A DNA stretch of 64,000 bases from Deltaproteobacteria bacterium (GCA_040218735.1 JAVJQW010000049.1:96001-160000); one strand, 5' to 3'. Shown: positions 51,351-60,321, counted from the first letter of the stretch. The notes: generated by a model not told the origin, from the sequence alone. A program made the numbers and translations.

Positions 51351-52776
51351 CAGGCCCCCTCCGGGGGCGCCAGCCACTCCACTGCGACGCTGTCCCCGAC
51401 TGAGCTCACCACGACCAACGCGTCGCCGACCTCCACGACGAAGGCCGAAGCCTCCGCCTGCACCGAGACCCGAGGACAAACGGTCGAAGTGCCGTCCGTG
51501 ACACGGTGGTGCCACAGCGAACCACGTTCGACCGCCACGAAGCCCCCGACGATCGACTCCAGTGCCAACACCTCGGAGGACATCGACGACGCAATGGGCT
51601 CGGGCGCTGCACCGAGGCGGGTCGGGTGTACGGACAGGCCGCCGGAGGCGTCGCCGAGGATCAGCCCGAGCTCGGGTACAAACGCTATCTGCGTGACCGA
51701 CGAGGTCGCGGCGCGCTCCTGCAGCGCGTACGCGGTGTACGCGACGTTACGCTCCGGCGCGAACGGCCACAGCGCCGCGGTGTGTTCACGCGAAACGAAC
51801 GCCAGGTCGCTGTCGACGAAACGCACGGAGTTGTTCGGGGCGGGCGTGGTGAACGCGAGCGGTTCGTCGAGCGCGGGCGGCTCCCCTGCGAACGTATAGC
51901 GGCTCACGTGCCCGAGGAACTCCTTGCGCACGTCGTTGTACCGAGCGCTGAAGAGATCGAGGCGTTCGACGGGAGCGCGCCGCGGGCCGGTCAGCTCGAT
52001 CGCCGCGAAATCGAATGCCGAACGACGCACCTCGTGGACGCGCTCGAATGCGCGCGCCTCGAGGTCGAAGTCCGATCGGTACACCGCCCCCGGAGCGCGA
52101 TGGTCCGGGTGTTGGCGTACGTGAACCAGAGTGTTCGACCGAAGCCGCGAAAGATCGGTCCGATCCGACAGGGGCCGTTACAGACGTCGTCCCCGACGGG
52201 TTGGTCGATCGGTTGGATCGTCTCGGCGGTGACCGCGTACAGGGCGCCGCCGCGCAGCCCCACCAGGAGGGTGGTCTCCTCCCAGGTGCCTTCGGCGCCC
52301 AGAGCCACCGCGAAGAGCGGCGGTTCGGTTGATGCAATCGAACGCGTCGTCTCGACGCTCGACAAGCAGCCGCCGGGCGCCTCGATGCGAAGGTCGACGA
52401 TCGGCCCCGCCCACCGCTCGGAGAGCGGCGACCACGCGACGGGAGTCTTCTGCGTCTGTAAGCTGCGGGCCGGGGTCGGCAGGAGGCGCCCACCCTCCAA
52501 TGCGAGGTCCTGCAAGCCAGGTTGCAGCCCGAGCTCGGCCAACGAGCGTTGGTAGGCGTAGAAGAACACCTCGTTGGGCACGTTGTCGGGGGCGACCCGC
52601 ACCGGCGCGTCCACGAGGACACCGTCTTCGAAGCGCAACGCGTGCACCTGGTTACCCAGGACGAGGAGTCCGGCTTGGTGTTGCGGTTCGACGGGGAGGT
52701 CGAAGAAGGCGGCATCGGGCATCGAGCAGGCGGCGCAGGCGAGGGCCGCGAGGGCGCGGAGGTAGCGTGCGCTCAC
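51350..52776 (-). pseudogene. Hypothetical lipoprotein apparently split by a frameshift near 52090 (or a sequencing error)
   Basis: 5' part from GTG 52776 (VSARYLRALAALACAAC) stops at 51991; 3' part 51350-52084 overlaps it by 94 bp in another frame; G5 run at the junction. Confidence 0.55.
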
Positions 52777-53588
52777 CGGCACTCTCGCGCGTCCGCGGCG
52801 AAGCACAGCTCGACGGGGTCGTTGGGGCCCGAGAGGAGCAGCCCCGCGGTCACGCCTGCCGCGACGGCGACGACGACCGCGCCGGTGACGACCCAGAACG
52901 CAGGCTGTTCGACGAGGGAGACCTCTTCGTTCAGCGTGACCCGGGTCAGGGACTCCTGTCCGGCGACGATCCGCAACGTTGTCGTCGCGGGAGCGTGGCC
53001 TTCGGCGTGGGCCTGGAGCGTGTAGATTCCCGGTGGCCCACGGTAGAGGCGGGGCCCGACGGCGACCAGCTCCCCTGGCGTCACGATCTGAGCGCCCGGC
53101 GGGCTGACCGCGACGCGCGCGCGACCGCCTCGGACCGCGCCGTGGGCTGTGAGGAGCCCGACCGACGCCTCGGCGATCTTGCGCGCGAGCAGAGGTCCTT
53201 CCGTCGGATCGAGCGCCACGAGGCGATCGTCGGAGCGCATCGTGTCCGGATGGATGATCGTCAGCGCGACGCTCCACGGCTCGAGCTCGAAGTTCACCGC
53301 TGCGACGACGATGAGCTCGAGCGTGTGCTCCCGAAACACCCGCGCGACACACGCCGCGTCGGCCCCGCAGTCGCGCACCTGAGACGCGCTCATGGAGGGG
53401 CTCTGCACGAGGAGCTGGTTGTAGGAGAGCGGCTCGACGAGCAGCGGCTGGGCCTCGACGATCTCGACGAGCGCCGCGTAGATATCGGCGGACGTCGTCG
53501 GGGGCGCTTCACCCGCGACGATCGGGACGAACGCGACCTGGGGCAGGGTAGCGTAGAGCGTCGCGAGTAGGTGCACCATCGTCTGCAT
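52773..53588 (-). CDS. PEGA-like domain protein with C-terminal hydrophobic anchor
   Basis: CGADAACV; PPGIYTLQAHAEGHAP; tail QPAFWVVTGAVVVAVAAGVTAGLLL. Confidence 0.7.
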   Translation of the reverse strand: MQTMVHLLATLYATLPQVAFVPIVAGEAPPTTSADIYAALVEIVEAQPLLVEPLSYNQLLVQSPSMSASQVRDCGADAACVARVFREHTLELIVVAAVNFELEPWSVALTIIHPDTMRSDDRLVALDPTEGPLLARKIAEASVGLLTAHGAVRGGRARVAVSPPGAQIVTPGELVAVGPRLYRGPPGIYTLQAHAEGHAPATTTLRIVAGQESLTRVTLNEEVSLVEQPAFWVVTGAVVVAVAAGVTAGLLLSGPNDPVELCFAADARECR

Positions 53589-53612: not shown

Positions 53613-55730
53613 TCACCGCCAGCTGAAGCCCGAGAAGTGGCAGTCCGTGCAATCGATTCGCCCGAACGGGTGCGCGCCCGGGGCGACCGAACGCCCGCGC
53701 GCTGCGTCGAGCGCGTGGCAGTCGAAGCAGTCGGTCGGCAGCCCGACCCAGCGCTCGTTCGTGTGGCAGTCCATGCACGGCGTGACGAAGTGCCGTCCGC
53801 GCAGCGGCCACCCCGAGACGTCGTGGTCGAAGCGGACGAGGCTCCACCGATCGGCTTCGTGGCACCGTTGGCACTGGACGCCGAGCTGTCCGCTGTGCGG
53901 CTCGACGTGGCAGGTCCCGCACCGCTCCAACGGTGGCGCCACCTGACCGGCGGGGTGGCACTTCGCACACTTCAGCGCTGCGTGCCGGCGGACGAGATCG
54001 AACCCGGTGCCGCGGTGGTCGAAGGGATCGTCGAAGGCGCGCGACTCGTCGTGGCAGTCGCGACAGACCCCGAGCGCTTCGGAGTGGGTCGGCGCGTGGC
54101 AATTCACGCAGGCCTGCCGGTCCTTCGCCGCGTTCATCCGCGTGCTGTTCGTGCCTTCATGGCACTTCTCACATTTGGTCTCGGCGTGTTTCCCGGCGAG
54201 CTCGAACCCCGTGAGTTTGTGGTCGAACTTCGTGACCGGTGTGAAGCCATCGTTGGTGTGGCAGCTCGCGCAGTCCTCACCGAACTTACCTTGGTGGACG
54301 TCGACGTGGCAGCCGGCGCACTCGACCGGGAGGCCCGTCAGCTGCCCGCCGACGTGGCAGTCACTGCATTCGACCGACTTGTGTTTCCCCGCGAGCGGGA
54401 ACTTCGTCTCTTCGTGGCGCTCGACGGTGAAGAGGGCGGGGGGCGACCAGTCGGCCGTCGAGTGGCACGTCTCGCAGGCGGCCTTGGCCTGTCCGTCGTG
54501 CGCGTCCTCGTGGCAGTGCACGCATGCCTTCGTCCCCTTCGGGAAGTCCTTCGTCTTCTCCGCGTGGCAGTCTTGGCAACTCACCTCCACGTGTTGCCCG
54601 TCGATAGGGAAGCCGGTCGATTCGTGTTTGAACTTCGGTTGGTCGAAGCCCTTTTCGTTGTGGCACTGTTCGCACGCGCCGAAGTCACCGTGGGCCTTCA
54701 TGCCCTCGTCGCGGTGGCAGCCCGCGCAATCCTCCGGAGCCGCCTTGAACTGAGTTCGTCGACGCCGCTTCTGGAAGTGGCACCGGTCGCAGTCGACGGT
54801 CAGGTGGAGATCGACCAGCTCGAACCTCGACTTCTTGTTGTGATCGAACCGGTTGTTCTTCCACGACGTCGCCGAGTGACAGAGGCTGCACTCACCCAAG
54901 AACTCATGCGTCGACTCCTTCGCGTGACAGCCGCTGCAGAGGGTCGGGGTGTTCGTGAAGTCGAAGTCGACGTGGCAGCTCGTGCACGACGCCGTCCGGT
55001 GTTTCCCAGGGAACTTACACGTGCAGTAGGAGTGGTCGAACTTCGCGGGCTTCCAACCCGCGACCTGGTGGCAGTTGTCGCAGGGGGCGTTCGTCCCGTC
55101 GTGTCCGCGCTCGTGACACGTCGCGCACCGGACCTCCTTCGTCAGGCTGCGCCCGCCGAGGTGGCAGTCCGTGCACGTGCGCTCGGCGTGGCCGCCGTGC
55201 ATCGCGACCGCGTGGTCGCCGATCTTCTTGAGCCCCGTCTTCCAGCTCGTGTCGCCGTGGCACTTCTGGCACTGCGCGCCGAGCTCACCTTCGTGGACGT
55301 CGTCGTGGCACTTGGCGCACAGCGAACCCATCTCGCGGAGGGGTTTTGTGTGGCACTTCGCGCAGTCGATCCCGTCGTGTTTGCCGCGCAGCGCGAAGCG
55401 CGTGTCGTCGTGGGTGAATTTCTCGAGCGCGGCGGCCACGGTGAGGGACGCGCTCCGCCCACCGTGGTCGGCGTGACAATCGATGCACGGGGTCTTCGCG
55501 ACCTTCGCGTGGTACCCGACCGACTTGTCGATCCTGCGGTCGAGGTCCACGTGACAGTCGAGGCACTTCTCGTCGGGGACGCCCTTGAAGACGAGGTGGC
55601 AGCTGTCGCAGTTGGATTCGGTCTTCACGTGGTCGGTGCCGACGGGGCCCGGCGACAGGAGCGCCTGCCAGCCCGCGACCGCCGCGGCGGGCGCGAGCAC
55701 GATCGAGATTGCGATGACGAGACGTTTCAC
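53613..55730 (-). CDS. Periplasmic 30-heme c-type cytochrome (10 tandem tri-heme modules)
   Basis: Signal VKRLVIAISIVLAPAAAVA; 30 CxxCH counted; repeating FDH..TGFxLxGxH-CxxCH-CxxCH-H-CxxCH units. Confidence 0.93.
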   Translation of the reverse strand: MKRLVIAISIVLAPAAAVAGWQALLSPGPVGTDHVKTESNCDSCHLVFKGVPDEKCLDCHVDLDRRIDKSVGYHAKVAKTPCIDCHADHGGRSASLTVAAALEKFTHDDTRFALRGKHDGIDCAKCHTKPLREMGSLCAKCHDDVHEGELGAQCQKCHGDTSWKTGLKKIGDHAVAMHGGHAERTCTDCHLGGRSLTKEVRCATCHERGHDGTNAPCDNCHQVAGWKPAKFDHSYCTCKFPGKHRTASCTSCHVDFDFTNTPTLCSGCHAKESTHEFLGECSLCHSATSWKNNRFDHNKKSRFELVDLHLTVDCDRCHFQKRRRRTQFKAAPEDCAGCHRDEGMKAHGDFGACEQCHNEKGFDQPKFKHESTGFPIDGQHVEVSCQDCHAEKTKDFPKGTKACVHCHEDAHDGQAKAACETCHSTADWSPPALFTVERHEETKFPLAGKHKSVECSDCHVGGQLTGLPVECAGCHVDVHQGKFGEDCASCHTNDGFTPVTKFDHKLTGFELAGKHAETKCEKCHEGTNSTRMNAAKDRQACVNCHAPTHSEALGVCRDCHDESRAFDDPFDHRGTGFDLVRRHAALKCAKCHPAGQVAPPLERCGTCHVEPHSGQLGVQCQRCHEADRWSLVRFDHDVSGWPLRGRHFVTPCMDCHTNERWVGLPTDCFDCHALDAARGRSVAPGAHPFGRIDCTDCHFSGFSWR

Positions 55731-57103
55731 CACGTCGCACCCCACTGCGCACCGGCGTGTACGAAGAAGCGGATCTCCCCGCCGTTGAGGTTCTTCTCGA
55801 AGTCGCCGCCTCCGAAGAAGTACGCGTGTGCGTAGAAGATCCGCGCGAACAACACTTGCTGCGCCTGGAGCACGAACGGCGACAGGTCGTCCGGGTCGAC
55901 GGGTTGGCCGGGGGAGCGCGGATCGAAGGCGAGGCCCGAAACCGGTGCCGCGGAGCGTTCGAGGAAGCGGACGCCGGCCTGTGCGTCGACGTTGAATCGG
56001 CGGAACCCGAGCGCGCCCTTCCAGAGGATGCGGTCGAGGTCGGGACCGTCGGGGTCGTCGAATTCGATGTCGTCGTAGAAGATGCGCGCGAGGAGGTACG
56101 GACCCTTGATCCCCAGGCGGTTCGCTTCGATGGAGGCGCCGTAGCGGATCTCGCGCCGGTCCTCGCGGATGCGCAGGCGCGCCGAGGCGCGAACCCATCC
56201 GAGCTCCAGCGGCTGCACCGCGGCGTGGACGCGGTTGTCGAGGAAGTTCGGATCCTGGAGGACGTCGAGGTCGTCCGCGAGGCCTTCACGGAACACCGCG
56301 GCGCGTTGGAACTGGCCTTGGTAACCCACGCGAACCCAGTCGAAGGGCTGGTAGTCGGCGAACAGCACGACGCCGAGGAGGTTGAGCGCATTGGCCTGAA
56401 GCTGCGCCGACGACCACGACGGCCCGAGCACGTACGAGGCGCGTTCGGAGAACGAGACGTTGCCGCCGATCGTCAGCTCGTCGGTCGGGCGACCGACGCC
56501 GAAGAGCATCAGGTTGAACGCGTCGAAGTCTTCGGTGACCTGGGTGTCGTCGTCCTGTCTCAGCAGCTCGATGCGGTCGCGCGCGAACGCACCGACGAGC
56601 GAGGCTGAAAGTCGGGTGTCGCGCCAGGAGACGCCGCCGCCCACCGCGGGGAGGAAGTCGGAGAGGTCGACGTTGCGCCGTGACGTCGTGAGCGCGCGGC
56701 GGCCGCCGAACGCTTCGAAGCGGAGGCGGCCGTTGCGGTAGGCTGCCTTGACCGCGTCGACGGGGAGGAACGATGCGGAGCCCGCGACGAAGCGCCCGGC
56801 CGACAGCTCGAGGCCGTCGACGATCTCGTAGCCGACCTCCGCCTGGTAGAGGAGGCGGAGCGTGGTGTTCTGCACGGCGCCGCCGACCGGTTCGCGGCCG
56901 CGGTAGTCGACGGCGACCCGAAGTTTGTCGTCCAGCTCGCGAAGTCGCAGCCGGACGTGCATGCCGATCTCCTGCGCGGCGAACGACTCCGTGTCGGAGG
57001 ACGCCTCCGCCCGGAAGAAGTCGGTCGAGACGCTGCCGTCGACCTCGCCGGCGAACGCCGGGGACCCGAACAACACACAGAGGATGAACGCCAGGGCGCG
57101 CAT
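55727..57103 (-). CDS. Probable outer-membrane beta-barrel (cytochrome-associated porin)
   Basis: ATG 57103, signal MRALAFILCVLFGSPAFA; amphipathic strands; terminal aromatic FFVHAGAQWGATW; translationally coupled to the 30-heme gene. Confidence 0.75.
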   Translation of the reverse strand: MRALAFILCVLFGSPAFAGEVDGSVSTDFFRAEASSDTESFAAQEIGMHVRLRLRELDDKLRVAVDYRGREPVGGAVQNTTLRLLYQAEVGYEIVDGLELSAGRFVAGSASFLPVDAVKAAYRNGRLRFEAFGGRRALTTSRRNVDLSDFLPAVGGGVSWRDTRLSASLVGAFARDRIELLRQDDDTQVTEDFDAFNLMLFGVGRPTDELTIGGNVSFSERASYVLGPSWSSAQLQANALNLLGVVLFADYQPFDWVRVGYQGQFQRAAVFREGLADDLDVLQDPNFLDNRVHAAVQPLELGWVRASARLRIREDRREIRYGASIEANRLGIKGPYLLARIFYDDIEFDDPDGPDLDRILWKGALGFRRFNVDAQAGVRFLERSAAPVSGLAFDPRSPGQPVDPDDLSPFVLQAQQVLFARIFYAHAYFFGGGDFEKNLNGGEIRFFVHAGAQWGATW

Positions 57104-57861
57104 CACAGCCCGGGCGTGAACATGTACGAGAGGATGACGTGGACCGCCGCGAGCACGTACATCATCGCGGCGATCGGACGGTGCGCGATGATCCACCGCG
57201 AGAAGATCTTGTTGGCGGCCGCGTAGGCGATCATGCGCCGTTCGAGGATCAGACGCCGCTCCGCGAGCTCGCGAACCTGCGGCGCCAGCGACATCCCGCT
57301 CAATTGGCGGCGTGCTCGGCGGGCGTCGAGGTCGGCGCGCATCAGGCCGATGAGTCCGGAGGGCTTGGGGCCCTTTTGCGACAAGGCGAGAACCTCCGCG
57401 GGGAGGTCGCCGAGGGACGATAGCTCCGCATCGACGTCCTTCACCTCCATGCGCTCGCCATGAATGCTCCTCGGGAGCATCGAGTACATATAGCGGCCGA
57501 AGAGTCCGGAGAAGAACACGATGAGTACGAATACAAAACTCAGGAAGCCCGGGTTCAGCGGTGAGATGGGTGCCTCGCGGGTAAACAGGTGTGTCGAGTG
57601 GAATCCGACGAGGATCATGCCCTGAAATCCGAGGAAGATGTGCAGATGCAGCCACGCCGAGAGTCGCGCGACCTGCCGTAATCCTCGCGATCGTCGCGCG
57701 ATCGAGTAGACGAGCATGACGATCATCGCGATGAGTCCGCCCCAGCCTAGATAGATCGACAGTGGCGCGGATGAGTTGGGTGGGTCTTGGATGTAAACAA
57801 CGCTGAGATAGATCGTCTCGGCGATGATGATGACGAAATATAAGATTGGGATGAGTCGCAT
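57103..57861 (-). CDS. Inner-membrane His-rich protein, cytochrome b / ferric-reductase-like TM domain
   Basis: About 5 TM helices with intramembrane His pairs WLHLHIFLG...GFHS and WIIAHRP...AVHV. Confidence 0.7.
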   Translation of the reverse strand: MRLIPILYFVIIIAETIYLSVVYIQDPPNSSAPLSIYLGWGGLIAMIVMLVYSIARRSRGLRQVARLSAWLHLHIFLGFQGMILVGFHSTHLFTREAPISPLNPGFLSFVFVLIVFFSGLFGRYMYSMLPRSIHGERMEVKDVDAELSSLGDLPAEVLALSQKGPKPSGLIGLMRADLDARRARRQLSGMSLAPQVRELAERRLILERRMIAYAAANKIFSRWIIAHRPIAAMMYVLAAVHVILSYMFTPGL

Positions 57862-57904
57862 TTATTATCGTCCTGGTCTCGCCGGGGTGGTAACTTCTCG
57901 GGCC

Positions 57905-59227
57905 GTGGAAGTCGTCGTCGGGTTCGGAGTGCTCATGCTTGGCCTCATCCTCCTCTGGGGCGTGCGGTCGCTGCGCGGCCAGCGCGAGCTGGAGTCGCAG
58001 TCGCGCGAGAACCTCTCGCACGCCGAACGGTCGGGCGCGCTCCCGCCGTCGCTCCACCCCAAGGTCAACCTCGACGTCTGCATCGGCACGGGCGCATGCG
58101 TGAAGGTCTGCCCGGAGGTCGACGTGCTCGGCCTGATCGACGGCAAGGCGCGGCTCGCGAACCCGACGAAGTGCATCGGTCACGGCGAGTGCCTGCGTGC
58201 GTGTCCCGTCGATGCGATCGAGCTGGTGATCGGCAACGAGCGCCGCGGCGTGGATATCCCGCTCGTCTCCTCGGAGTTCGAAACCAACGTGCCGAATCTC
58301 TACGTGGTGGGCGAGCTCGGGGGCATGGGCCTCATCTACAACGCGATGACGCAGGCGCTGCAGTGCATGCGCGCCGTGAAGCGCGCCGTACCGAAGAAGC
58401 AAGAGGGCGTGCATCAGCTGGTGATCGTCGGCGCCGGGCCGGCGGGGCTCGCGGCGTCGCTCGCGGCCATCGAGGCGAAGCTCGACTACGTGACGGTGGA
58501 TCAGGAGTCGATGGGCGGCACGGTGCTGCAGTACCCGCGACAGAAGATCGTGATGAGCCGCCCCGTGCAGCTCCCGATCTACGGCAAGCTCGCGATCACC
58601 ACGGTGTCGAAGGAGGACCTGCTCGCGCAGTGGGAGGACATCGTCACGAAGACCGGCGTCCGGGTTCGAAACCAAGTGCGCGTCGATGGCGTGAAGAAGG
58701 GCGACGACGGCATCTTCGAGGTCGCGACTTCGCAAGGTACCTTGCGCGCGAACGTCGTGCTCCTCGCGATGGGGCGACGCGGGACGCCGCGGAAGCTCGG
58801 CGTGCCGGGTGAGGACCTGCCAAAGGTCACCTACCGTTTGCTCGAACCGGAGAACTACGCGGGGAGCCGTTGCCTCGTGGTCGGCGGCGGCGACTCCGCA
58901 GTGGAGGCGGCGATCGCGCTGGGCGAGGCGGGTGCCACGGTCCACCTGTCGTACCGCGGGAGCGCGTTCGGTCGCATCAAGCCGAAGAACCAGGAGCGCC
59001 TCGACGCCGCGGTCGGTGCGGGCAAGGTCGCGCTGATGATGGAGACCAACACGAAGGCGATCACGAAGGACGCGGTGACGCTCGACGACGGCGGTCGTTC
59101 CATCGAGCTGCCCAACGACTACGTGCTCGTGTTCGCGGGCGGCGTGCTGCCGACGAAGTTCCTGCAGGCGGCGGGGGTCGAGGTGCAGACGTTCAAGGGC
59201 GAGGCCTTCGCGCCTGCGAATACCTGA
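57905..59227 (+). CDS. Membrane-anchored ferredoxin plus thioredoxin-reductase-like FAD/NAD(P)H oxidoreductase fusion
   Basis: N-terminal TM; CIGTGACVKVCP and CIGHGECLRACP; YVVGELGG; IVGAGPAG (FAD); VVGGGDSAVE...SYR (NAD(P)H); start placed at GTG 57905. Confidence 0.85.
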   Translation: MEVVVGFGVLMLGLILLWGVRSLRGQRELESQSRENLSHAERSGALPPSLHPKVNLDVCIGTGACVKVCPEVDVLGLIDGKARLANPTKCIGHGECLRACPVDAIELVIGNERRGVDIPLVSSEFETNVPNLYVVGELGGMGLIYNAMTQALQCMRAVKRAVPKKQEGVHQLVIVGAGPAGLAASLAAIEAKLDYVTVDQESMGGTVLQYPRQKIVMSRPVQLPIYGKLAITTVSKEDLLAQWEDIVTKTGVRVRNQVRVDGVKKGDDGIFEVATSQGTLRANVVLLAMGRRGTPRKLGVPGEDLPKVTYRLLEPENYAGSRCLVVGGGDSAVEAAIALGEAGATVHLSYRGSAFGRIKPKNQERLDAAVGAGKVALMMETNTKAITKDAVTLDDGGRSIELPNDYVLVFAGGVLPTKFLQAAGVEVQTFKGEAFAPANT

Positions 59228-59259
59228 GCGTTCGACGACGAAGACGATCACGGCGCGGC

Positions 59260-60321
59260 TCAGTTGAAGTCGACCGTTCCGTCGACGTGGCGGTTCGGCG
59301 CGGTGATGGTGAGGTTCGGGCCGGCGACGGCGCCGTGGCAGTTGTTACAGGCGGACGAGCCGGGGTGCGGCGGCGGCGGAGGGTTCGCGTGGCAGGTGCC
59401 GCAGGCGGCCTGCGTGCCGTCGACATTCGTCCACACCGGCGTGGTGCTGCCGTGGCAGTGGGTGTTCGCGCACGTCGCGGCGTCGCGATCCCACGCGGGC
59501 GTGCGTCCACCGGTGGTGGGGACGGCTCCCCAGACGACCTCGGCGGGGGGCGCCGTGTCGGTGTGTCCGGGGTCGCCGACGGCCTGGATGTCGACGTGAC
59601 AAGCCGTGCACGTGACCGGCGCGAAGGGGCCGGCGGGGGCCAGGTGGATGCGGTGGGCGCCGACGCCGACGGTGGACGTGTCGGAGGCGCCGTTCAGATC
59701 GAGGGGCGGCGCGGGGTCGCTGTCGTCGCCGTGGCATCCGGTCGCACAGGAGCCGCCGCCTCCGTCGACGTCGAGCGTCCCGTCGAGGTGTCGCGACGGA
59801 TCCGCGAGCGTCTGGTTCGGTCCGGCGACGGGCGCGTGGCACGCCTCGCAGGTGTTCGAGGCGGGGTGGGGCGGCGGCGGCGGCATCGCGTGGCAGGCGC
59901 CGCACGCGGCTTCACTGCCGTCGAGGTCGGTCCATGCCGGCGCGCCCGCGCCGTGGCAGTAGGTGTTGTTGCAGGCGGCGGTCGCGCGGTCGTAGGTCGG
60001 GGCGGCGCCGGTGGAGGCGAGCGCGCCGAACTGGACCTCGGCGGGCCACGGGGTGTCGATGTGGCCGGGTGCATCGACGGTGCCCGGCACGAGGTGGCAC
60101 TCCCCGCACGCGACGGCGCGGCCGAGGCGCGCGCCGGTGAGGTGGGCCTGGTGCGCGCCGACCGCGGGGCCGTCGTCGATGCCGCCGAGCCCGGAGGGCG
60201 GCGCGGCGTTTGCGGCGCCGCCGTGGCAGTCCGCGCACCCGGCGACGGCGGGGACGTCCTGAGCGCGCTCGAAGCACGCCGTGGCGAGCAGGAGGAAGAG
60301 CAGGGGAGCGGGGGGGCGCAA
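59260..60321 (-). CDS. Lipoprotein multiheme cytochrome c with Geobacter-type CxxxxCH...CxxCH motifs (10 putative hemes)
   Basis: Lipobox LATAC; CADCH, CGECH, CNNTYCH, CGACH, CEACH, CATGCH, CTACH, CANTHCH, CGTCH, CNNCH; two duplicated halves. Confidence 0.88.
   Translation of the reverse strand: MRPPAPLLFLLLATACFERAQDVPAVAGCADCHGGAANAAPPSGLGGIDDGPAVGAHQAHLTGARLGRAVACGECHLVPGTVDAPGHIDTPWPAEVQFGALASTGAAPTYDRATAACNNTYCHGAGAPAWTDLDGSEAACGACHAMPPPPPHPASNTCEACHAPVAGPNQTLADPSRHLDGTLDVDGGGGSCATGCHGDDSDPAPPLDLNGASDTSTVGVGAHRIHLAPAGPFAPVTCTACHVDIQAVGDPGHTDTAPPAEVVWGAVPTTGGRTPAWDRDAATCANTHCHGSTTPVWTNVDGTQAACGTCHANPPPPPHPGSSACNNCHGAVAGPNLTITAPNRHVDGTVDFN

Follow-up and report, generated by a model that had tools for sequence, protein, structure and literature searches.

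Five adjacent genes, denoted A to E, occupy positions 53613-60321 of a 64,000-nucleotide stretch of DNA from a Deltaproteobacteria bacterium (GCA_040218735.1, JAVJQW010000049.1:96001-160000). The whole stretch, referred to as the window in the following, corresponds to positions 96001-160000 of contig C29 in an 11.6-Mb genome of 70 contigs, the relatives of which are labelled Myxococcota. Taken together, the evidence makes it reasonably probable that the five genes encode a single envelope-spanning electron conduit of the PCC3/PCC4 (ptd) kind, through which electrons of NAD(P)H would reach an acceptor outside the cell without passing the quinone pool. The strongest evidence that they may represent two modules of one path is provided by related genomes in which the cluster is split. 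The genes and the gap between the two divergent ones are as follows.

C, 53613..55730, minus strand: 705-aa exported multiheme cytochrome c with 30 CxxCH motifs and c7-type triheme repeats
B, 55727..57103, minus strand: 458-aa outer-membrane beta-barrel with signal peptide
A, 57103..57861, minus strand: 252-aa inner-membrane protein with five transmembrane (TM) helices, putative di-heme cytochrome b
Divergent A/D intergenic region, 57862..57904: 43 nt between the starts of A and D
D, 57905..59227, plus strand: membrane-anchored flavoprotein with TM helix, Fe-S domain and a domain for flavin adenine dinucleotide (FAD) and NAD(P)H
E, 59260..60321, minus strand: 353-aa putative lipoprotein cytochrome, candidate surface cytochrome

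Gene organization of the cluster

In a preliminary description of this DNA five redox and envelope genes had been placed side by side, and all of them are found at the positions listed above, in a sequence with a G+C content of 68-72%. The translational coupling proposed for A, B and C is reflected in start/stop overlaps on the minus strand, which read GTGATG for the A stop and B start and GTGA for the B stop and C start. The frame of D is open from 57824 to 59227 on the plus strand, with ATG codons at 57824 and 57851 as alternative starts; since homologues align only from about residue 27-58 of this open frame, GTG 57905 is the likely start of D. Between this codon and the ATG of A at 57861 lie exactly 43 nt, in agreement with the approximately 43 bp given previously for the two divergent starts. 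The fifth gene had been described as a ten-heme lipoprotein following D. Its adjacency to D is correct, but E is encoded on the minus strand and converges with D, the two stop codons being 32 nt apart, and three of its ten heme sites are non-canonical.

Conservation of the cluster and split loci

A pattern scan with one genome per species gave 15 confirmed B loci. After removal of duplicates (L002 = L005, L003 = L006, L078 = L016 and L079 = L012) 17 other genomes (L004-L019 and L077) were compared with the window, many of the hosts of B loci having genomes of 8-11 Mb that are recorded as Archangium or Myxococcaceae. The counts were obtained from six-frame matches and from open frames in DNA of high G+C content. 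The co-occurrence of the genes, on which the preliminary description had made its proposal depend, is complete: every other B-holding genome (17 of 17) also has A, C and D, and the genes neighbour one another in 14 of these. The unsplit set of four is adjacent in 11 genomes, and 10 of these have D divergent from A, B and the 30-heme C. The order in L008 is B and 30-heme C, then a divergent A/D pair; D is located 2.4 kb away in L009, and the loci L019 and L004 are cut within B and within C, respectively. Wherever a complete C of the fused kind is present, it carries exactly 30 CxxCH motifs (9 of 9).

Six of the 17 genomes hold the system split into two modules. In three of them (L010, L011 and L013) B is followed by a 14-CxxCH cytochrome that aligns to residues 402-705 of C, and a few kb away D is found divergent from A, which in turn is followed by a 16-CxxCH cytochrome aligning to residues 1-398 of C. 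In these genomes a stretch of 9 kb contains both modules, and E is missing in L013. In the other three (L014, L015 and L017) the locus reads (E)-B-14-heme cytochrome, and the D/A-16-heme module is located on other contigs (A matches with E-values of 2e-99 to 6e-105). The heme counts of the two cytochromes, 14 and 16, add up to 30, the count of the window C. Since the split cytochromes align to its two halves, the window C can be regarded as a fusion of two cytochromes, the N-terminal approximately 400 aa being equivalent to the 16-heme cytochrome of the inner module and the C-terminal approximately 300 aa to the 14-heme cytochrome of the barrel module. Judged from the gene order, one part of C travels with D and A, and the other with the barrel and the lipoprotein cytochrome.

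Fusion of the flavoprotein with the membrane protein

The profile of A has matches (E ≤ 1e-5) in 99 of 401 Myxococcota genomes, corresponding to 80 of 316 high-quality genomes and 49 of 154 genera, with one unpublished genome (G200) included in the phylum counts. The surrounding 19 kb were retrieved for 20 A matches, of which 3 are window-type and 17 are distant loci (L060-L076), the latter being hand-picked from the higher-scoring matches in different genomes and hence not random. Their A-like part is 23-30% identical to A, and a D-like sequence (40-50% identity) is located immediately upstream on the same strand in all 17. Except for L061, the D-like and A-like parts share one open frame of at least 749 aa (16 of 17). 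Cytochromes summing to exactly 30 CxxCH motifs (30, or 20+10) follow in 14 of the 17 distant loci, L061, L063 and L076 being the exceptions. A conserved candidate barrel of about 540 aa, which has a signal peptide and ends in an aromatic residue, is likewise found nearby in 14 of 17, and a lipobox cytochrome with 9-29 hemes, as detected by a simple heuristic, in 9 of 17.

The proteins of about 540 aa (L060-L075, e.g. L069:4062-5687, minus strand, and L068:12364-14145, plus strand) form an unannotated family with an N-terminal region of about 140 aa that contains two invariant cysteines; from their sequence features they are probably barrels. Homology between this family and B was considered and rejected, as the match (hhalign probability 21%, E 0.001, 215 columns) is too weak and neither has a Pfam family.

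The fused frame of L069 (9227-11473, 748 aa, no stop) is identical to ABC82437.1/WP_011421719.1 of Anaeromyxobacter dehalogenans, where it is annotated merely as 'NAD(P)-binding domain-containing protein'. In A. dehalogenans the fused gene adjoins genes for 20- and 10-heme cytochromes, and a 9-heme lipoprotein cytochrome and a candidate barrel of about 540 aa belong to the same set. A search of the 401 genomes with ABC82437.1 gives matches at E ≤ 1e-40 in 132, and by a hand count among the matches listed at least 88 of the 401 encode a full-length, stop-free fused D-A protein. Three genomes (G252, G257 and G335) possess a window-type cluster plus a fused copy elsewhere; the window's own genome has no fused D-A copy at E ≤ 1e-40.

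Among 1.84 billion representative proteins the A profile finds 2758 matches at E ≤ 0.001, 1263 at E ≤ 1e-10 and 44 at E ≤ 1e-30, many of which are stand-alone proteins of 280-330 aa. The reverse order of fusion is seen in P0289 (679 aa), in which the A domain (residues 3-239) precedes the Fe-S domain and Pyr_redox_3, and in L085 (G410:C110:184568-188281) an A-like gene is followed by a separate, co-directional D-like gene. In P0392 and in a protein of the window's own genome (C42:546206-548365, minus strand) a cyclic nucleotide monophosphate (cNMP)-binding/polyferredoxin region is fused to an A-like domain with both WX3HX13H motifs. The link between the flavoprotein and the membrane protein is further backed by the existence of natural D-A fusions.

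The A-then-D order of L085 and P0289 is also the domain order of eukaryotic NADPH oxidases. The paralogue on C42 comprises about 708 aa, with 4Fe-4S dicluster domains according to Pfam and a 5-TM A-like domain, and contig C42 contains no multiheme cytochrome gene with at least four CxxCH motifs. A second, ptd/PCC4-like cluster is located at C60:84000-110500 of the same genome, with several 7-9-heme cytochromes nearby. It includes a 726-aa polyferredoxin fused to a domain resembling the PCC3/PCC4 inner-membrane protein (IMP), with two WX3HX13H motifs (103679-105859), and a D-like flavoprotein that is 30% identical to D (107653-108897).

The membrane protein A

The AlphaFold2 model of A (pLDDT 85.5) consists of five long TM helices, with an Arg-rich helical insert of about 90 aa between TM4 and TM5. 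Three motifs are recognized, namely W70-x3-H74-x13-H88 on TM3, S118-G119-x-x-G122 on TM4 and W223-x3-H227-x13-H241 on TM5; an alignment of 44 relatives shows W70, H74, H88, S118, G119, G122, H227 and H241 to be invariant and W223 to be nearly invariant. The earlier designation of A as His-rich has to be dropped, there being only 7 His in 252 residues, four of which (H74, H88, H227 and H241) are the invariant ones. The expectation that the His residues are conserved and placed for heme b is borne out: the two invariant H-x13-H pairs on TM3 and TM5 represent the di-heme-b signature described in PMC5566968 for the IMPs of PCC3/PCC4 and for ferric reductase (FRD) domains, and the two bis-His sites of the FRD type, with a pair of His spaced by 13 residues on each of two TM helices, are thereby present in A.

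For A itself no family scores above threshold. Weak matches to PF01794 (E ≤ 1, best E 2e-05) are found for 36 of the 44 members of the A family, and an Atlas feature search returns, as a lead only, clusters automatically named 'Iron reductase' and 'Ferric reductase like transmembrane component' at 0.91-0.92. The profile of the 44 sequences finds nothing meaningful among the PDB sequences, the best match (E 0.28) being a peptidase. By its motifs A is a putative di-heme cytochrome b with predicted heme loading. Since Fe-S domains, which are necessarily cytoplasmic, occur fused to the A-type TM domain, the N-terminus of A and the TM4-TM5 insert would face the cytoplasm, in agreement with the positive-inside rule.

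The flavoprotein D

D combines a single N-terminal TM helix with an Fe-S domain (Fer4_10, 40.5 bits) and a dinucleotide-binding domain (Pyr_redox_3, 151.6 bits). The nearest solved structures are those of YpdA/Bdr (7a76, E 3e-27; 7a7b, E 3e-26), followed by ferredoxin-NADP reductases of the thioredoxin reductase (TrxR) type. Against the NCBIfam model of YpdA (TIGR04018) D scores 167.6 bits and does not reach the trusted cut-off of 339.9; D appears to be a relative of the YpdA family outside its membership. The FAD and NAD(P)H motifs VGxGPAG and LVVGGGDxAxEAA are kept in 30 of 30 D-type sequences, and no conserved CxxC is found among these 30.

The Fe-S domain harbors six invariant cysteines in the arrangement CX5CX3CP, which occurs twice (30 of 30 sequences, split and fused; residues 86-127 of D, window positions 58079-58205). 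At the position of the classical second cysteine the first motif has T or S, and the second an invariant His. The clusters may accordingly be of the [3Fe-4S] type, or of the [4Fe-4S] type with a non-Cys ligand such as His, and unusual potentials are suggested. Of the original assignment of D as a membrane-anchored ferredoxin-FAD/NAD(P)H protein, the TM anchor, the Fe-S domain and both dinucleotide motifs are retained, while the ferredoxin part departs from it in having only three cysteines per motif.

The 30-heme cytochrome C and the barrel B

C carries a signal peptide and, as counted before, exactly 30 CxxCH motifs, or one heme per 23.5 aa. With 62 His there are enough for bis-His ligation at all 30 hemes. 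C matches PF14522 (Cytochrome_C7) with 101.9 bits at a cut-off of 24.8, and the spacing of its CxxCH motifs recurs at about 16, 16 and 32 residues, which amounts to a triheme periodicity. The only match to a family of the MtrCAB type, the MtrC/MtrF domain, stays below threshold (26.3 bits versus 30), as does the only one of the Hmc/Tmc type, the HmcA model (18.2 bits versus a cut-off of 400), and among the PDB sequences there is a marginal NrfH match only. The window's own genome contains 36 open reading frames (ORFs) with at least four CxxCH motifs. Another 30-CxxCH cytochrome, about 30% identical to C and followed by a 671-aa ORF, is encoded at C58:377776-380400 (plus strand), with no A- or D-like gene within about 6 kb.

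B possesses a signal peptide, terminates in GATW and lacks a plug domain. It matches no Pfam or NCBIfam family, and every one of its 58 homologue clusters is unnamed or 'hypothetical'. The AlphaFold2 model built from 48 sequences (pLDDT 85.3, pTM 0.78) shows a signal helix and approximately 22 strands, as anticipated from the initial assignment of B as a beta-barrel. Foldseek returns outer-membrane barrels only (ushers, TonB-dependent receptors, OprD, AlgE; E 1.5e-9 to about 4e-7). In the VIA search 22-strand barrels of TonB-dependent receptors rank first, residues 19-455 being covered; the best match is PirA (Z 18.7, root-mean-square deviation 5.1, 355 residues aligned), and Fiu, PiuA, Cir and BtuB follow with Z 16.6-18.0. 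The 50 fold matches listed do not include MtrB, a result with which a similarity would still be compatible.

Complex prediction of porin and cytochrome, as suggested at the outset, was carried out for B(20-458) and C(402-705), each with its own alignment, in three runs and with three controls. The median ipSAE is 0.44 (runs 0.01, 0.70 and 0.44) as compared with 0.00 for the best control; the pLDDT of the partners is at least 76, and contacts agreed between runs in at least 0%. For calibration, the ipSAE mark is passed by 58 of 80 solved complexes and by 2 of 110 mismatched pairs, and the range up to 0.60 holds only 7 of the 80 solved complexes and both of the passing mismatched pairs. The modelled complex thus adds a small increment of support for an association of B and C.

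Cytochrome E and the outer slot

E has a lipobox-like LATAC as well as 7 CxxCH, 1 CxxxCH and 2 CxxxxCH motifs. It matches the CxxxxCH/CxxCH domain TIGR01904 in two stretches (72.1 bits versus a cut-off of 27), and has no match among the PDB sequences. Homologues of E (43-46% identity) adjoin B in five loci, divergently in L010 and on the strand of B, immediately upstream of it, in L011, L014, L015 and L017. The canonical lipoboxes among these homologues include LSAC, ISAC and IVAC, lipobox calls being heuristic throughout. In L007, L009, L012, L016, L018, L019 and L077, by comparison, a lipobox cytochrome of about 1000 aa with 27 CxxCH motifs lies directly downstream of D on the strand of D. 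Its composition is rich in A/G/S/T and its hosts are Archangium-like (e.g. L077:4526-7740, minus strand; L078:11394-14720, plus strand). This 27-heme lipoprotein holds the place of E, in the orientation opposite to that of E in the window.

E-type homologues are encoded elsewhere in the genome in five of five tested genomes that have the 27-heme lipoprotein beside D. The outer slot is filled beside the cluster, by an E-type or a 27-heme lipoprotein, in 12 of the 17 other genomes, as it is in the window. E is therefore best described as a replaceable outer component and, by its predicted lipid anchor, as a candidate surface cytochrome.

Relation to known systems

The arrangement had been put forward as one that is not known as a described system. 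This cannot be upheld, as closely similar clusters, PCC3/PCC4 (He, Barco, Emerson and Roden 2017, PMC5566968) and ptd (2024), are in print, though uncharacterised. In the sections of PMC5566968 drawn upon here, the putative PCC3 consists of a porin, extracellular and periplasmic cytochromes (median 34 and 21 hemes, respectively) and an IMP of about 300 aa. The IMPs of PCC3 and PCC4 are described there as having five TM helices, with SGXXG on TM4 and WX3HX13H on TM3 and TM5, and are likened to FRD. PCC3 itself is predicted only and uncharacterised, both in that paper and in a Gallionellaceae survey (PMC9900912), as far as the parts cited here extend.

The window shares with PCC3 an outer-membrane barrel (B), a many-heme periplasmic cytochrome with few residues per heme (C, 30 CxxCH, 23.5 aa per heme), a second multiheme cytochrome and an IMP of about 250-300 aa, and A fits the IMP signature residue for residue. 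As to the extracellular cytochrome of PCC3, E possesses a lipobox and 10 heme motifs and adjoins B in five split loci, its localisation being predicted. The two systems differ in host (Myxococcota versus Pseudomonadota for PCC3) and in the outer cytochrome, which in the window is a 10-site lipoprotein of the TIGR01904 type and in relatives a 27-heme one. They also differ in the conserved Fe-S flavoprotein, often fused to the IMP, which the consulted text of PMC5566968 does not mention for PCC3, and in the model published there, according to which the IMP exchanges electrons with quinone and the flow is inward.

The ptdABCDEFG cluster (bioRxiv 10.1101/2023.11.21.568154), as summarized in the part of the preprint used here, encodes a pentaheme cytochrome, a porin, an FAD/NAD(P) oxidoreductase, a tetraheme cytochrome, a protein with cNMP-binding and 2x4Fe-4S domains, a ferric-reductase-like TM protein and a decaheme cytochrome, and its function is called completely unknown. 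PCC4 and ptd resemble the window in that, beside a porin and multiheme cytochromes, they include a TM protein similar to ferric reductases, a 4Fe-4S protein and an FAD/NAD(P) oxidoreductase. The last three have their counterparts in A and D, with Fe-S clusters and flavin on one protein here. In place of 4-, 5- and 10-heme periplasmic cytochromes and no extracellular one, the window has one 30-heme cytochrome and one 10-site lipoprotein. Furthermore, PtdC is flavohemoprotein-like, whereas D is TrxR/YpdA-like and includes its own Fe-S domain, and PtdE carries a domain for cNMP binding; neither a mechanism nor fusion evidence is given in that part of the source. The comparison with ptd and with PCC3, the reference cluster of which is that of Sideroxydans lithotrophicus ES-1, is one of described motifs and gene content.

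The window also resembles MtrCAB of Shewanella and the Pcc (OmaB-OmbB-OmcB) and Ext systems of Geobacter, in which a periplasmic multiheme cytochrome is sheathed by a barrel and meets a surface lipoprotein cytochrome. MtrCAB and Pcc receive their electrons from the quinol oxidases CymA, ImcH and CbcL, and to our knowledge all characterised Gram-negative pathways of extracellular electron transfer start at quinol oxidases. In the window there is no family-level match to these systems, B has approximately 22 strands with barrels of TonB-dependent receptors as best folds, and the periplasmic cytochrome has 30 hemes as opposed to their 8-12.

With NADPH oxidases (NOX) and ferric reductases (FRD, PF01794), as well as with MsrQ and its partner Fre, the window shares the outward order NAD(P)H, flavin and two b hemes, together with two TM helices that each bear a pair of His spaced by 13 residues. 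It differs from them in the dehydrogenase, which is of the two-dinucleotide TrxR type and not of the ferredoxin-NADP reductase (FNR) type, in the interposed Fe-S domain, in the TM domain with five versus six helices and marginal sequence similarity, and in the acceptor, a 30-heme cytochrome versus O2, Fe(III) or MsrP. The Hmc and Tmc complexes of sulfate reducers, like the window, connect a periplasmic multiheme cytochrome c via a membrane cytochrome b to cytoplasmic Fe-S proteins; they differ in that their flow is inward to sulfate reduction, in having neither flavoprotein, barrel nor surface cytochrome, and in belonging to other subunit families.

The 16/26-heme operon of PMC5539420 was considered and found to be a different system, and PMC6199725 and a 2026 peat preprint hold nothing relevant to the one described here. 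A literature search, which did not extend to supplements that may cover hosts and domain architectures, found no description of a D-type partner of the IMP or its fusion to it, of a 16+14 or 20+10 partition of hemes, or of the system in Myxococcota or Anaeromyxobacter.

Proposed electron path and alternative explanations

From the gene anatomy, folds, motifs, co-occurrence, fission into modules and D-A fusions we infer cofactor loading, protein contacts, donor, outward direction, acceptor and quinone independence of the following path. D would be positioned on the cytoplasmic face of the inner membrane, where NAD(P)H would be oxidised at FAD and the electrons would pass through two Fe-S clusters. 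A would hold two b hemes between its two His pairs and conduct the electrons through the inner membrane. They would then be taken over from A by the N-terminal half of C, C being presumably long enough to bridge the periplasm, while its C-terminal half would be associated with B and lead through or to the barrel. From C the electrons would be passed on to the 10 hemes of E, acting as lipoprotein cytochrome on the surface. The net reaction would be electron transfer from NAD(P)H to an extracellular acceptor past the quinone pool, in a split NOX-like design.

The potential of NAD(P)H, approximately -320 mV, is much lower than those of Fe(III), Mn(IV), humic substances or O2. As NAD(P)H is more reducing than the plausible acceptors and the inside-negative potential favours electron export, outward flow is clearly preferred over inward flow. 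Since such export would consume membrane potential, the likely role of the conduit is that of an electron sink for redox balancing or of a surface reductive function, and not that of a coupling site.

A number of results weigh against this NAD(P)H-driven conduit. B is distributed patchily: of 60 other relatives searched only 3 possess it, all of them among the 19 members of the same family and none among the 41 from the rest of the phylum. The related genomes are dependent samples, which renders all counts descriptive. A remains below the gathering threshold of PF01794 (14.1 bits versus 28), and its model has no Foldseek match in the PDB at E ≤ 0.001. The wide VIA fold search of A is headed by two chemoreceptor sensor domains (Z 9.9 and 9.0). 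Di-heme-b folds follow, namely CybB (5oc0, Z 8.9), cytochrome b561 (4o6y, Z 8.1), a designed two-heme bundle (Z 7.7) and STEAP4 (6hcy, Z 7.5, 151 residues aligned, rank 36), and because these values are within the noise for helical bundles they neither favour nor reject an FRD- or b561-like fold. With three cysteines per Fe-S motif of D, several cluster types and potentials are conceivable, and the donor may be NADH, NADPH or another compound. The B/C prediction is weak, with one of three runs at 0.01. E is linked inconsistently: it adjoins B in 5 of 17 genomes, is substituted by the 27-heme cytochrome in 7 and has nothing in its place in 5, L004 and L005 among the latter having little flank. 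Electron export from NAD(P)H would dissipate and not build proton-motive force, as in NADPH oxidases, and a respiratory role is not obvious. Finally, the IMP is proposed in the cited sections of PMC5566968 to be a quinone-active di-heme cytochrome b, and PCC3 is placed there in iron oxidisers with inward flow.

The last point leads to two alternatives. In one of them the same hardware would run inward, with electrons coming from Fe(II), Mn(II), reduced humics, a partner cell or a cathode, and A and D passing them to a cytoplasmic acceptor, either NAD(P)+ or another one. Reversal is in principle possible for multiheme wires and b-heme pairs, and TrxR-type FNRs are generally known to work both ways; PCC3/PCC4 are, moreover, found in genomes of Fe(II) oxidisers and modelled inward in the part of PMC5566968 cited. 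This direction is nevertheless unlikely, as donors at about 0 to +0.2 V would have to reduce NAD(P)+ (-0.32 V) against the inside-negative potential, a strongly uphill step, nothing in A suggests an energy-coupling device, and the hosts are Anaeromyxobacter, known as a metal reducer, and large heterotrophic myxobacteria, not lithotrophs.

In the other, A would be a quinol- or quinone-linked cytochrome b and the true entry, like CymA, CbcL or ImcH, and D an accessory that serves as an alternative input, as a reductase for repair or redox poising, or as a regulator. Quinone linkage is the published hypothesis for the same IMP signature (PMC5566968, in the sections cited), and several di-heme b membrane proteins are quinone-reactive, among them E. 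coli CybB, one of the best though insignificant fold matches of A. The occurrence of D and A as one polypeptide in at least 88 of 401 genomes, with fusion in both orders, speaks against it, as do the split genomes, where D stays with A and not with B, and the polyferredoxin-TM-domain fusions of the paralogues. D-A linkage and polyferredoxin fusions together point to a cytoplasmic Fe-S donor, and no quinone-site motif was noted in A, though no search was aimed at one. This explanation is accordingly given only a small chance.

Little probability is likewise assigned to a function that is neither respiratory nor directed at minerals, in which the system would provide the envelope with reducing power, as MsrQ/Fre or NOX do, for assimilatory Fe(III) reduction, for detoxification of oxidants or metals, or for the production of extracellular reduced oxygen species by predatory myxobacteria. 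The NOX-like design, with FAD/NAD(P)H followed by two trans-membrane b hemes, would suit such a function, as would hosts of 8-11 Mb labelled Archangium or Myxococcaceae, the near-identical DNA in aquaculture/biofloc and sponge metagenomes described below, and the circumstance that NAD(P)H-driven export would conserve no energy. However, 30 periplasmic hemes, a barrel and a lipoprotein with 10-27 hemes are far beyond the needs of a periplasmic repair or assimilatory reductase, and no conserved gene for a target enzyme is present in the clusters examined.

That the genes are chance neighbours, or that only A, B and C form a unit to which D and E are unrelated, as the divergent D, the convergent E and the non-adjacency of E in most relatives might suggest, is highly improbable and already contradicted by the fusion and synteny data, since D and A are adjacent or fused in every locus with enough flank, E adjoins B in five split loci and the total of 30 hemes is kept across three gene layouts.

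Surroundings of the cluster and occurrence in public reads

A single sigma-70-like match was found across the 8.4 kb scanned, in the gap between A and D (57893-57864, minus strand); this consensus match upstream of A is one observed site versus 0.3 expected. It stops 3 nt short of the ATG of A and, if real, would imply a leaderless or differently started A transcript. Terminator-like sites are not more numerous in the scanned region than in shuffled controls.

An ORF of 271 aa (52773-53588, minus strand) with a C-terminal hydrophobic segment lies 24 nt past the stop codon of C. Its match to the PEGA domain is weak and under threshold (16.8 bits). As no tblastn match of at least 50 bits was obtained in the 19 loci screened, weaker matches not being part of the output, this ORF is left outside the system.

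Near-identical DNA is present in public reads, among the matches listed in 20 runs from 10 studies, including aquaculture/biofloc and sponge metagenomes; one of the runs is possibly the source of the window DNA. A sponge-metagenome contig of 11,295 nt spans the whole stretch of the five genes with 112 differences, which indicates that the five-gene layout recurs in a close relative. In a biofloc metatranscriptome run (X20) 5% of the sampled words are present, and its contigs of 151-351 nt (90-97% identity) fall on C, the B/C junction (55654-55957), B, D and the D/E boundary. They are not counted as expression, as the library may contain DNA and the sequences come from a relative, and provide a hint of the habitat and of possible expression of relatives.

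Implications

The fission and fusion patterns give a concrete and testable wiring diagram for how PCC3, PCC4 and ptd clusters might connect to metabolism, and Anaeromyxobacter dehalogenans 2CP-C is a cultured carrier of the fused D-A protein (ABC82437.1). As a tentative proposition, for which we see somewhat less than an even chance, the system may be the first recognised quinone-bypassing inner-membrane input module for extracellular electron transfer, a NOX wired to a cable, in which D, split or fused, and the di-heme b protein A feed a 30-heme wire and a porin-cytochrome exit in approximately a fifth of the sampled Myxococcota, including Anaeromyxobacter dehalogenans. By the identity of the IMP motifs it may then also explain how PCC3, PCC4 and ptd are linked to metabolism in iron oxidisers and marine bacteria. 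Should the proposed direction be wrong, the same parts would constitute an electron-uptake route. If the outward NAD(P)H-driven conduit is correct, it would represent a new coupling of cytoplasmic NAD(P)H to the cell exterior, the redox balancing of Myxococcota and their reduction of metals and humics in soils would need rethinking, and a single-polypeptide input module would become usable for the engineering of electroactive cells.

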